Source: Escherichia phage KK4
Sequence record: OR327750.1
Strand: one strand, 5' to 3'
Length of the DNA: 64,000 nucleotides
The notes under the pieces are model-generated. The model did no database searches and was not told the origin of the DNA. It worked only from the letters and a program-made list of their open reading frames with translations. Positions 1-4,089 of this stretch are shown piece after piece. The translations under genes were made by a program, and so were the position numbers. Each line of letters opens with the position of its first letter. Positions within the stretch are counted from its first letter, which is position 1.

Positions 1-121
1 TATTAGCAAGTTCTGAAAAATCTTTAATAAAACACTCTAGCTTAAACTGTTTACTTTTTAATGCTTTTTCACGTAATTGATTAGCAAAAGATTCATTTTC
101 ATAAAGATCATACTGTTCCAT
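1..121 (-). CDS. Hypothetical protein, 5' part only (ATG at 121..119, runs off the window start); position corresponds to T4 24.2
   Basis: Open minus-strand frame from ATG at 119-121 to window edge; overlaps next ORF stop by 14 nt in another frame. Confidence 0.3.
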   Translation of the reverse strand, partial: MEQYDLYENESFANQLREKALKSKQFKLECFIKDFSELAN

Positions 122-323
122 TTTTCACCTTTTTATTGATATGTCTTTTTCTATAGACAACTTTTTCTCGAGTTTCAAATTTATTCTTAGCAGTCATAGC
201 TCGAGCCCATAATACAGCCACTTCTTTTGCCTGTAAGTTTAATTCACGAGCAATTTCAATGAATGACTTTCCAGACTCATGAAGAGTAAACACCACAACC
301 TCAGTTCTCATAATCAATCTCAT
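108..323 (-). CDS. Small helix-turn-helix protein (position of T4 24.3)
   Basis: 71-aa ORF with an HTH-like segment SFIEIARELNLQAKEVAVLW; sits immediately upstream of hoc region as in T4. Confidence 0.5.
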   Translation of the reverse strand: MRLIMRTEVVVFTLHESGKSFIEIARELNLQAKEVAVLWARAMTAKNKFETREKVVYRKRHINKKVKNGTV

Positions 324-380: not shown

Positions 381-408
381 AAAATGAAGAAAGGGGCCGA
401 AGCCCCTT
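381..408 (-). terminator. Intrinsic terminator downstream of hoc (GGGGC-UUCG-GCCCC hairpin followed by a U-rich tract on the minus strand)
   Basis: Plus-strand aaggggccgaagcccctt at 391-408 preceded by an A-run; 10 nt after the hoc stop. Confidence 0.55.
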
Positions 409-418
409 ATGATTATGA

Positions 419-1837
419 TTATGGATAGGTATAGATGATACCAGTTTCTAAAGCAGTTTTATGAATGATGTATCCATTACGTGATTCTTGGACATCAACT
501 TCTGGATAGTCTTTCATCATCTTCTGAAGAGTGTAACGATGCAGGTAGTATTTACTATCTGGATCTTCAGTTTTCCAATCTTTACCTTCTTCAGTCATTT
601 TTTGGATTTCATCCATAACCCACCAACCGCACCAGATGTAAGCTGAGCTACGGTGTGGAAGAGGATGAACATAAGGTAATTCACCTTCTGGTTCTGGAGC
701 AACTTTATCGGTTACCTGAACTTGACCTTCTGCCGTAATAGTTTTGCTATCATAATCAGCAGCAGTAACAGTTGCAGTAACTTCAATAGTTTGACTTCCA
801 ATAGATGAGGTATCAACGGTGTATACATTAGTTGACCCTTCTACAGGAGAAGAATCTTTCTTCCATGAATACGCAATTTGCGCTTCTTCTGGAGCATCAG
901 TGACATTAGCGGTAAATGTAGCCGAAGCATCTTGCTGGACGTTAATAGAAGGAGGAGTCAATGTAACCTGTGGATTCATTGTCTTCTTATTAACAGTTAA
1001 TGATACTTCATTCGAAGTAACTGTTTTTGCGTCATAATCCGCTGCTGTTACTTGGGCTACGCATTTAATTCTTTTTACTCCACTTGTAGTTGGAGTATAG
1101 TTAAATGTAGAGTTAGTTTCTCCACCAACTTGTGAATCATCTACATACCACTGATACGTAGCAGACGCTCCAACGGGTTGAGAAGCTAAGGCAGCAGTAA
1201 ATTGAACTGGGGTTCCAATTACTCCAGCTGAAGGACTATCGGGAGTTACTGCCAAAGTAGTTGTCTGTGTCTTTTTATTAACAGTCAGTGACACTTCATT
1301 AGAAGTAACGCTTAGTGCATCATAATCTGTCGCAGTTACTTGAGCCACACACTTAATTCTTTTTACCCCGCTTTCGACAGGAGTGTAATTGAATGTAGCA
1401 GAAGTTGCTTCGCCCACAGGAGAATCATCTACATACCATTGATAAGTAGCGTTTGCGCCTGATGGCTGCGAAGCTAAAGCGGCAGTAAATTCAATAGCTG
1501 TTCCGATTACTCCAGCGCCAGGGCTATTAGGAGTTACAGCTAAGGTGGTCGTTTGTGTCTTATTTTGAACTGTGATAGTTGTAGTAGCTTCTGCTGTTTC
1601 AGCATCAGTATCTGGGACTGGGTTTGTTGCAACTACTTTAATAGTCTTTTGACCGGCAGGTCCTTTTAGTACATAACTAAAAGTTGCTTCAGCTCCATCT
1701 TGTGGAACATCATCTACAGTCCAAGCATATGTAATAGGTCCATCTCCAGTTTGACCACTGGGTGTAGCAGTAAACTGCTGAGTCTGATCTATAACTCCAG
1801 TAGGTGTTTTAGGAGTTATATCAACTGTAAAAGCCAT
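419..1837 (-). CDS. hoc: Hoc, highly immunogenic outer capsid protein, 472 aa with one extra tandem Ig-like domain relative to the 376-aa T4 protein
   Basis: N- and C-termini match recalled T4 Hoc (…PYVHPLPHRSSAYIWCGWWVMDEIQKMTEEGKDWK…); internal 95/96-aa Ig-like unit present twice. Confidence 0.92.
   Translation of the reverse strand: MAFTVDITPKTPTGVIDQTQQFTATPSGQTGDGPITYAWTVDDVPQDGAEATFSYVLKGPAGQKTIKVVATNPVPDTDAETAEATTTITVQNKTQTTTLAVTPNSPGAGVIGTAIEFTAALASQPSGANATYQWYVDDSPVGEATSATFNYTPVESGVKRIKCVAQVTATDYDALSVTSNEVSLTVNKKTQTTTLAVTPDSPSAGVIGTPVQFTAALASQPVGASATYQWYVDDSQVGGETNSTFNYTPTTSGVKRIKCVAQVTAADYDAKTVTSNEVSLTVNKKTMNPQVTLTPPSINVQQDASATFTANVTDAPEEAQIAYSWKKDSSPVEGSTNVYTVDTSSIGSQTIEVTATVTAADYDSKTITAEGQVQVTDKVAPEPEGELPYVHPLPHRSSAYIWCGWWVMDEIQKMTEEGKDWKTEDPDSKYYLHRYTLQKMMKDYPEVDVQESRNGYIIHKTALETGIIYTYP
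992..1564 (-). repeat. Tandem duplication of a ~285-bp Ig-like domain coding unit inside hoc (residues 92-186 and 187-282)
   Basis: Two consecutive protein units NK(K)TQTTTLAVTP…SNEVSLTV; DNA copies diverged by many synonymous changes. Confidence 0.8.
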
Positions 1838-1846
1838 AAGTTATCC

Positions 1847-2527
1847 TTATTTTAATGTTACGAAAGAAGAATTGCGTGTTTCACGAATTAAAACTGATCC
1901 ATCACGATTAATGTAATAAATTAAGCTAAATAAAGTTTGGTGTGCTGACGCGTGCTCAAAACTTGTTGGGTGAGATTTCCAATCCGGAGTTTCAGCAATC
2001 CATTGATAAATCCACCAAGGAACAGTGCAGAATCCTGGATTTTTTCCAATCAACTGAAGATTCGGACTAAAATTTTCCGGAAGAGTAAATACAGACGGCC
2101 TTTCAGATTCAATAATTTCAGCTACAGCCTGTTCGAATTTTTCTTCAACAAAAGGAGTATCTTCAATCAAAACATCGGTATTTTCAGGAATTTTATCCGT
2201 TTCTACTACTTCAATTTTAATGTCAGATTTAACCGGAGAATCAATCAGAAGTGCTGCTTCTGGATTGACTTCTTCATCGTCATATTTTAATCCCTCTGCG
2301 GCATCAGCAGCATCAATTAGGTCTTTAATAGATAACCCATCAGTCTCTGGCATAGGTTCACTAGCGAGCTTCTGGAGGGCTTCTTCAATATCAACAACGA
2401 TATTATCAAAAGATTTATTCTTTTTGATCTTTATACCAAACTGTTCAGCATATTCAGCTAATTTAGCTTTAGCTTCTTTATTATCATCAAGAGCCTTCAG
2501 CTCTGCAATATAATCTTTATCTATCAT
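1847..2527 (-). CDS. inh: Inh, inhibitor of prohead protease gp21
   Basis: 226-aa ORF directly upstream of hoc in T4 order; acidic, matches Inh length. Confidence 0.8.
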   Translation of the reverse strand: MIDKDYIAELKALDDNKEAKAKLAEYAEQFGIKIKKNKSFDNIVVDIEEALQKLASEPMPETDGLSIKDLIDAADAAEGLKYDDEEVNPEAALLIDSPVKSDIKIEVVETDKIPENTDVLIEDTPFVEEKFEQAVAEIIESERPSVFTLPENFSPNLQLIGKNPGFCTVPWWIYQWIAETPDWKSHPTSFEHASAHQTLFSLIYYINRDGSVLIRETRNSSFVTLK

Positions 2528-2577: not shown

Positions 2578-4089
2578 ATGACTGACATTAAAGTACATTT
2601 TTATGATTTTAGTCACGTGAGAATTGATTGTGAAGAAAGTACATTTCATGAACTCCGTGATTTCTTTAGCTTTGAAGCTGATGGGTATCGTTTTAATCCG
2701 AAATACAAATATGGTCACTGGGATGGACGAATCCGTCTTTTAGATTATAATCGTCTTCTTCCATTTGGCTTAGTCGGGCAAATTAAAAAGTTCTGTGATA
2801 ACTTTGGCTATAAAGCCTGGATTGACCCGCAAATTAACGAAAAAGAAGAATTATCAAGAAAAGATTTTGATGAATGGCTTTCTAAATTAGAAATCTATTC
2901 AGGAAATAAAAGAATTGAACCGCACTGGTATCAAAAAGATGCAGTGTTCGAAGGATTAGTTAATCGTCGTAGAATTCTTAATCTTCCAACATCTGCAGGT
3001 AAATCTTTAATTCAAGCTTTGCTTGCGCGATATTATTTGGAAAATTATGAAGGTAAAATTCTTATCATTGTTCCAACAACTGCTCTGACAACTCAGATGG
3101 CTGATGACTTCGTTGACTATCGTTTATTCAGTCATGCAATGATAAAGAAAATTGGCGGCGGAGCATCAAAAGATGATAAATATAAAAATGACGCACCAGT
3201 CGTTGTTGGTACATGGCAAACTGTAGTTAAACAACCGAAAGAATGGTTCTCACAGTTTGGAATGATGATGAATGATGAATGTCATCTTGCTACAGGAAAA
3301 AGTATTTCATCTATCATATCAGGTTTAAATAACTGCATGTTTAAATTTGGTTTGTCTGGTTCATTACGTGATGGCAAAGCTAATATCATGCAGTATGTTG
3401 GAATGTTTGGTGAAATATTTAAGCCAGTAACGACTTCTAAATTAATGGAAGATGGACAAGTAACTGAGCTAAAAATTAATAGTATTTTTCTTCGCTATCC
3501 AGATGAGTTCACTACTAAATTAAAGGGAAAAACTTATCAAGAAGAAATAAAAATTATTACTGGGCTCAGTAAAAGAAATAAATGGATCGCTAAATTAGCT
3601 ATTAAGCTTGCGCAAAAAGATGAAAACGCTTTTGTCATGTTTAAACATGTATCACATGGTAAAGCTATTTTCGATTTAATTAAAAACGAATACGATAAAG
3701 TTTATTACGTATCAGGGGAAGTTGATACCGAAACCCGCAATATAATGAAAACCTTAGCTGAAAATGGTAAAGGAATAATTATAGTAGCTAGTTATGGTGT
3801 ATTTTCTACTGGTATTTCAGTTAAAAATCTGCATCACGTTGTTTTAGCGCACGGTGTTAAATCAAAAATCATTGTATTACAAACAATCGGTCGTGTATTA
3901 CGTAAGCATGGTTCTAAGACAATAGCAACCGTCTGGGACCTCATAGATGATTGTGGTGTTAAGCCAAAATCTGCTAATACGAAAAAGAAATATGTTCATT
4001 TGAACTATCTTTTAAAACACGGCATTGATCGTATTCAGCGCTACGCAGATGAAAAATTTAATTACGTAATGAAAACAGTTAATTTATAA
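2578..4089 (+). CDS. uvsW: UvsW, RNA-DNA and DNA helicase (SF2)
   Basis: 503-aa ORF with Walker A (PTSAGKS) and DEAH-like box (MNDECH); length and position match T4 UvsW. Confidence 0.92.
   Translation: MTDIKVHFYDFSHVRIDCEESTFHELRDFFSFEADGYRFNPKYKYGHWDGRIRLLDYNRLLPFGLVGQIKKFCDNFGYKAWIDPQINEKEELSRKDFDEWLSKLEIYSGNKRIEPHWYQKDAVFEGLVNRRRILNLPTSAGKSLIQALLARYYLENYEGKILIIVPTTALTTQMADDFVDYRLFSHAMIKKIGGGASKDDKYKNDAPVVVGTWQTVVKQPKEWFSQFGMMMNDECHLATGKSISSIISGLNNCMFKFGLSGSLRDGKANIMQYVGMFGEIFKPVTTSKLMEDGQVTELKINSIFLRYPDEFTTKLKGKTYQEEIKIITGLSKRNKWIAKLAIKLAQKDENAFVMFKHVSHGKAIFDLIKNEYDKVYYVSGEVDTETRNIMKTLAENGKGIIIVASYGVFSTGISVKNLHHVVLAHGVKSKIIVLQTIGRVLRKHGSKTIATVWDLIDDCGVKPKSANTKKKYVHLNYLLKHGIDRIQRYADEKFNYVMKTVNL

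Follow-up and report, generated by a model that had tools for sequence, protein, structure and literature searches.

A common two-module form of the capsid fibre protein Hoc in Tequatrovirus phages

Introduction

The hoc gene of Escherichia phage KK4 (sequence record OR327750.1) encodes 472 amino acids and thus differs in length from the gene of phage T4, which raises the question of what this additional sequence is, how old it is, and whether it sets the phage apart from its relatives. T4 Hoc (highly immunogenic outer capsid protein) decorates the phage head and is dispensable for growth. The stretch of DNA analysed here, referred to as the window, comprises 64,000 nucleotides of the above record. 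An earlier note on this stretch, made from the letters alone, had proposed that this gene exceeds T4 hoc by one Ig-like domain, owing to an old and maintained tandem duplication of the second domain. Here, we examine the identity of the gene, the repeat within it, its distribution among related phages and the relations among the repeated modules.

The window gene is hoc and is predicted to carry four Ig-like domains

The product of the open reading frame under study was matched by phmmer to T4 Hoc (PDB 5vf3_Z, 376 aa) with an E-value of 3.6e-222 in two stretches, that is, residues 1-113 of the window protein against residues 1-113 of T4 Hoc and residues 189-472 against residues 93-376 (575.7 bits). 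The hoc gene of the T4 record KJ477684 is 1131 nt long. Furthermore, the window gene is 100% identical to the coding sequence WIL00192.1 of phage GADU22 (OQ944321), a Tequatrovirus obtained in Turkey from urine. The genomic position is that of hoc as well: the gene belongs to the head-gene region, with inh immediately upstream and 24.3/24.2 and gene 24 on its downstream side, and the order inh-hoc-24.3 is the same as in the annotated regions of GADU22, T4, RB18 and ime09 (Table 1). The homology and the synteny bear out the earlier note's identification of the gene, and the T4 length that it gave was correct.

The inh stop codon and the hoc start codon are separated by 9 nt, and this gap contains the Shine-Dalgarno sequence AAGGA. 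A consensus scan found a terminator-like hairpin past the hoc stop codon, and the record of phage D5505 has an annotated terminator at the corresponding site. On the hoc strand, no copy of the T4 late-promoter sequence TATAAATA was present within 3 kb, and sigma-70-like promoter matches near hoc in the consensus scan occurred at chance level only. The annotation of GADU22 also lists an additional, separate small helicase ORF after the UvsW-type helicase.

Table 1. Coordinates of hoc, its neighbours and the predicted domains of its product in the window.
Feature	Window position	Strand	Size or residues	Remarks and basis
hoc CDS	419-1837	-	472 codons + stop	Stop 419-421, ATG 1835-1837; ORF list; uninterrupted
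inh, inhibitor of prohead protease	1847-2527	-	226 aa	Upstream of hoc; ORF list; synteny with annotated inh in RB18, Sf22, ime09 and T2
24.3-like protein	108-323	-	71 aa	Downstream of hoc; DUF2774/winged-helix family in other records
UvsW-type helicase	2578-4089	+	503 aa	Beyond inh
Terminator-like GC-rich hairpin (AAGGGGCTTCGGCCCCTT) followed by a T run	391-408	-		About 10 nt past the hoc stop; consensus scan
Ig-like domain 1 (D1)	1565-1837	-	aa 1-91	phmmer alignment to T4 Hoc 1-113; AF2 beta-sandwich, pLDDT ~85-93
D2-type module, copy a	1277-1564	-	aa 92-187	Less T4-D2-like copy; NEVSLT at 180-185
D2-type module, copy b	989-1276	-	aa 188-283	Copy nearest to T4 D2; NEVSLT at 276-281; aligns to T4 Hoc from residue 93
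Ig-like domain 3 in T4 numbering (D3), fourth Ig-like domain here	704-988	-	aa 284-378	Aligns to T4 Hoc 188-282; AF2 beta-sandwich, pLDDT ~84-93
Linker and C-terminal capsid-binding domain	422-703	-	aa 379-472	Differs from T4 Hoc 283-376 at one residue of the printed alignment

We then considered the domain content of the protein. The Pfam family PKD was found at 37.7 bits for the whole protein against a cut-off of 23.5, in two stretches, with the best at residues 195-254, while Ig_3 and I-set gave stretches over residues 289-373 that were below their cut-offs. An AlphaFold2 (AF2) model, built on 31 homologues with a mean pLDDT of 82.8, contained four all-beta blocks at residues 1-91, 92-187, 188-283 and 284-376 (pLDDT ~85-95). 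The linker (residues 379-404) had a pLDDT below 50 and the alpha/beta C-terminal domain was poorly modelled, so the model does not fix the geometry of the fibre. In a Foldseek search, the best PDB matches of the model were four-Ig fragments (Dscam1 Ig1-4, Sidekick-2 Ig1-4 and ICAM-5 D1-D4), and the crystal structure of RB49 Hoc (3SHS) was also found, with an E-value of 1e-9. The protein therefore has both parts expected of a Hoc, namely, an N-terminal string of PKD/I-set-like Ig domains and a C-terminal domain homologous to residues ~281-376 of T4 Hoc. Taken together, the alignments and the model show a Hoc with four predicted Ig-like domains, a linker and the conserved capsid-binding C-terminus; structure prediction, which the earlier note had named as a means of counting the domains, gave the number that it expected.

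The D2-type module is present in two diverged tandem copies

Two repeat finders, one of which was TRF (score 663), identified one 288-nt tandem repeat in the window gene, at positions 980-1267 and 1268-1555, with 75-76% identity between copies that are equal in length, in frame and essentially free of indels. The protein showed 81-82% self-identity at an offset of 96 residues but at most 24% at offsets of 94, 95 and 97. In a codon-shuffle control, the best 288-nt self-match was no higher than 43% in 20 shuffled genes, versus 74.7% observed. In the register of the domains, the repeat corresponds to two 96-aa modules, copy a and copy b (Table 1). The earlier note had placed the copies at residues 92-186 and 187-282 with about 80% identity; the tandem arrangement and the identity hold, whereas the limits were one residue off.

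Copies a and b differ at 73 of 288 nucleotide positions, and the differing codons comprise 38 with synonymous changes only and 18 with non-synonymous ones. According to the Nei-Gojobori method, pS between the copies is 0.64, dS is 1.47 and dN is 0.13, which gives a dN/dS of 0.09 and supports the view that both modules are kept under purifying selection. The adjacent, in-frame, equal-length units with purifying selection on both are what is expected of a tandem intragenic domain duplication. For comparison, the dS between window and T4 hoc is 0.28 in D1 and 0.25 in D3 plus the C-terminal domain; in the C-terminal domain by itself, dS is 0.099 and dN is 0.004. T4 D2 has a dS of 0.25 to copy b and 0.95 to copy a. 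The synonymous divergence between the two modules is thus near saturation, at roughly six times the divergence between window and T4 hoc elsewhere, and a dS of 1.47 against about 0.25 indicates that the paralogues are several-fold older than the split between the window phage and T4. Both the abundance of synonymous differences and the description of the duplication as old and maintained, as put forward in the earlier note, are thus supported.

The two-module form is a common allele within a series of one to four modules

How common is this form? The hoc genes of phages teqskov, KarlGJung and others are 97% identical to that of the window. To estimate prevalence, a sample of 60 evenly spaced rows was drawn from 656 matching phage records. 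In 18 of the 60 (~30%), hoc was a single piece of 1419 or 1425 nt, and in 33, including T4, RB18, RB7 and RB68, it was about 1131 nt long; the other sampled records had longer forms, were cut or broken, or belonged to distant genera. These lengths were called from the pieces and span columns of the even sample. Counts at ≥80% query coverage were discarded for this use, because a 1131-nt gene matches the query as two joined pieces and coverage cannot separate the gene lengths. At the protein level, the best 120 clusters consisted of 82 with proteins of 376-377 aa, 30 with proteins of 468-472 aa (about 440 members) and eight with proteins of 568-570 aa.

Longer forms were also found. A Hoc of 568-570 aa occurs in about 20 phage records, and the hoc of slur03 (LN881728; positions 10-2004 of the stretch read) encodes 664 aa, consisting of D1, four 96-aa modules, D3 and the C-terminal domain. 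With six Ig-like domains, this is the longest form found in the genus. The tblastn match pattern of slur08 and slur14 is the same as that of slur03, which is the only one of the three that was read. As judged from the sequences, the Tequatrovirus Hoc lengths of 376, 472, 568 and 664 aa correspond to one, two, three and four modules, respectively. The four-Ig Hoc is a frequent allele class that has already been deposited and annotated, and it is an ordinary natural variant. The claim of one Ig-like domain more than T4 is therefore correct as a count (four versus three), but the form is one state of the series and not a peculiarity of this phage.

Our search of the literature, the coverage of which was incomplete, found no description of the 472-aa Tequatrovirus form or of its module series, only general statements on variable Ig numbers. 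The allele itself carries little weight as a discovery, being common, deposited and annotated; the sole, mildly new angle is the series of one to four modules, with mosaic modules, within a single genus.

Several irregular records were encountered in this survey. In the record of phage moskry (MN850651), a repeat_region is annotated over most of the duplicated stretch. Its taxonomy line reads Mosigvirus mar005p1, yet its hoc is 95.6% identical to the Tequatrovirus hoc of the window, which could be an oddity of classification or a result of gene exchange. In vB_EcoM_G29, NHEP10 and FriedrichMiescher, hoc is annotated as two coding sequences ('Hoc part 1'/'Hoc part 2' or 'PKD domain protein x2'); such split annotations may stem from a frameshift or an interruption in a long-form gene, or from sequencing errors in the repeat. 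In T2 (MH751506), which has no intact hoc, the matching stretch is 1117 nt long (positions 301-1417 of the stretch read) and resembles a pseudogene, with no ORF longer than 141 aa and no annotated coding sequence.

Modules are mosaic across phages, and the direction of change is debatable

The relations among the modules were examined in 30 two-module and seven three-module proteins. First modules showed a mean identity of 89-92% to copy a and 81-82% to copy b, and second modules showed the reverse. The diagnostic residues P140, E143 and A144 were found at the first position in 29 of the 30 two-module proteins and in all seven three-module proteins. This constancy indicates that the arrays have largely been inherited rather than repeatedly re-made. 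In a clustering of core nucleotide sequences, copy a fell into one cluster (mean 96% within it) with the single D2 of RB18 and the first modules of both teqskov and moskry, while the single D2s of T4, RB7, PhiZZ6 and HY03 grouped with copy b. Module assignment was based only on these diagnostic residues and core clusters. A typing of the modules into four protein types on slur03 references was abandoned, as it gave small margins and inconsistent labels ('GB', 'BB'), and no fixed alpha-beta-gamma-delta order was used.

The 73 nucleotide sites at which copies a and b differ were then used to paint individual modules as a-type or b-type. The D2 of HY03 was a-type over approximately the first 30 sites and b-type afterwards; that of RB18 was a-type with a b-type tail; that of T4 was b-type with a nine-site a-type patch inside; and that of Sf22 showed more than one switch. 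Among 81 single-module Hocs, the head and tail states were b,b in 30, a,b in 22, a,a in 10 and b,a in eight. Simple deletion from an a-b array does not by itself explain these counts. Accordingly, we dropped the idea that every 376-aa Hoc arose by a deletion that left an a-type head and a b-type tail: HY03 and RB18 agree with it, but b-head/a-tail and multi-switch mosaics are frequent among the 81.

Such mosaicism across phages implies frequent recombination. These patterns are most simply explained if modules and alleles often undergo homologous exchange, in which unequal crossing-over would change the copy number and gene conversion or allelic recombination would change the content. T-even phages are known to recombine at a high rate in mixed infection at high multiplicity of infection (PMC9271167).

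A question raised by these findings is which state came first. To call one domain "extra" presupposes that T4 represents the ancestral state, which the data do not establish. It is conceivable, although we incline slightly against it, that a multi-module array is ancestral and that the three-Ig Hoc of T4 is a derived product of deletion by unequal crossing-over, so that T4 lacks a domain. A first duplication requires illegitimate recombination, whereas a deletion requires only homology; the divergence of a and b (dS 1.47) long predates that of the phages (dS ~0.25); and single-module Hocs have kept different modules, of a-type in RB18 and of b-type in T4, RB7 and PhiZZ6. The a-head/b-tail chimeras in the D2s of HY03 and RB18 also have different breakpoints, as expected of independent deletions. 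On the contrary, b-head/a-tail and multiply switching mosaics are common in single-module Hocs too, the internal a-type patch in the T4 D2 points to gene conversion or allelic exchange, and the outgroup genera have separate duplications of their own and hence do not polarise the change.

We regard it as unlikely that the second module was instead built by unequal recombination between two diverged single-module hoc alleles in a co-infected cell, in which case dS would measure the age of the alleles. Such an origin agrees with the fact that a-type as well as b-type cores circulate in single-module Hocs of 376 aa and with the free recombination of T-even phages at high multiplicity of infection (PMC9271167). 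However, the end and the start of D2 are different and offer no homology for a misaligned exchange between single-copy alleles, and the a-like first position shared by nearly all two-module and all three-module proteins points to inheritance of an existing array.

Finally, although assemblies often go wrong at tandem repeats, the spurious doubling of a single D2 during genome assembly is effectively refuted, as the earlier note had anticipated, since assemblers do not make diverged copies and since many phages that were sequenced independently, in different years and in several countries, carry the 1419-nt gene in a single piece (ime09 under accession JN202312, slur13, teqskov, moskry and PYps5T among them), with the 472-aa protein clusters holding about 440 member sequences.

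Proposed explanation and its implications for the capsid fibre

We consider it highly probable that the window gene is the Tequatrovirus hoc in its common two-module allele, with modules that stem from an old in-frame duplication and have been reshuffled by recombination, and with an expected effect on fibre length. As a monomeric capsid fibre, the protein would string together D1, the two paralogous D2-type modules (96 aa each, Ig/PKD-like) and D3, followed by the flexible linker and the conserved C-terminal domain. Both modules go back to an old tandem duplication that kept the reading frame, and both are under purifying selection. Their number and content have most likely been reshuffled in co-infected cells, where homologous recombination between modules and alleles would act together with unequal crossing-over and gene conversion. 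The resulting fibre would be longer than that of T4 by about one Ig domain, or roughly 4 nm.

A broader proposal, on which our judgement is evenly divided, is that hoc behaves as a recombination-driven accordion. A mucin-binding Ig module of 96 aa would be present in one to four copies (three to six Ig domains in total), paralogues held distinct by a nearly saturated synonymous divergence would be continually shuffled between positions and phages, and T4 would be one state, possibly derived by deletion. If this is true, the length and valency of the fibre would be tunable at the level of the population, and the three-Ig Hoc of T4 would be only one value.

In T4, there is one Hoc fibre per gp23 hexamer and 155 per prolate head, and the fibre is about 180 Å long (PMC10385173). 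Given that the C-terminal domain, which in T4 seats Hoc at the hexamer centre, is nearly identical to that of T4, the window phage presumably also carries one Hoc at each gp23* hexamer centre. With regard to mucin adhesion of the BAM type, the D2 of PhiPNJ-9 Hoc spans N92-N187, and the binding of this Hoc to fucosylated MUC2 required S183, L184 and T185 (PMC11853027); these boundaries are the same as those of module copy a. The motif NEVSLT occurs once per module in the window protein, at residues 180-185 (window 1277-1294) and 276-281 (window 989-1006), and the second copy is invariant in 31 aligned homologues. Since the motif is present twice, a two-module Hoc may present two MUC2-type sites per fibre, that is, two displayed copies of a module whose relative binds fucosylated MUC2 through these three residues. 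Other studies on other phages have located the critical adhesion residues in D1 or D3. Because the MUC2 result comes from a Hoc lacking D3 and because D1 or D3 are implicated in other phages, a doubled D2 need not double adhesion. Overall, it is plausible that the longer Hoc alters adhesion and matters for phage display.

These findings bear on the use of Hoc for display and on comparisons of mucus adherence among therapeutic T4-like phages. The length of T4 Hoc is not representative of the genus; about a third of isolates have a four-Ig Hoc and some have five or six Ig domains, and these longer forms hold duplicated copies of the module implicated in MUC2 binding. The natural series of one to four modules thereby provides a ready set of alleles for asking whether fibre length or valency changes adhesion.

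Comparison with other Hoc proteins

T4 Hoc (PDB 5VF3, 8T1X and others) shares D1, D3, the linker and the C-terminal domain with the window protein end to end, its gene has the same position after inh, and its D2 is the orthologue-like match of copy b. What sets the window protein apart from it is copy a, a further 96-aa module located between D1 and the T4-like D2. The 472-aa Hocs of GADU22, teqskov, KarlGJung, moskry, ime09, slur13 and PYps5T have the same a-b architecture at 90-100% nucleotide identity and show no substantial difference from that of the window. The forms of 568-570 aa (UGKSEcP2, EC101 and T4_ev151) and of 664 aa (slur03, slur08 and slur14) have the same D1, D3 and C-terminal domain and are built from the same type of 96-aa module, with the conserved edges KTQTTTLAVTP and VTSNEVSLTVN. 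They contain three or four modules, however, and the additional ones include a separate type (ANPAAGVIG...VDGSLVDGETTTTF...GAKTVKC) not found in the window.

Outside this group, Hocs that are 48-50% identical to the window protein occur in forms of 279-282, 367-377 and 471-472 aa. A scan of IMG/VR returned only 21 loci with few from Tequatrovirus, which made it unsuited to a census, but it provided a parallel from Klebsiella phages: T4-like phages of this host have a Hoc length polymorphism of their own, with forms of 282, 377 and 471-472 aa. The Hoc of Klebsiella phage Marfa (MN044033; positions 1501-2913 of the stretch read) has 471 aa, and its gene matches mainly Klebsiella phage records. 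This protein contains its own tandem Ig duplication (residues ~185-374), the copies of which are 80% identical when offset by 94 aa, and the hoc of some of its relatives is about 280 nt shorter. Because the duplicated domain occupies a different position, the event in Marfa was independent of that in the window.

More distant Hocs extend this range further. RB49 Hoc (3SHS) has three Ig domains and shows ~22% identity according to the published figure, while PhiPNJ-9 Hoc has two and is the form without D3 described by Fu et al. in 2024 (PMC11853027). Among the 650 Hoc homologues of Fokine et al. (2023), the strings of Ig-like domains range from one to ten, the ten being those of Serratia phage Muldoon (PMC10385173). 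In view of this published range and of a Hoc without D3, a variable number of Ig domains in Hoc is established knowledge, to which the Tequatrovirus series of one to four D2-type modules belongs.
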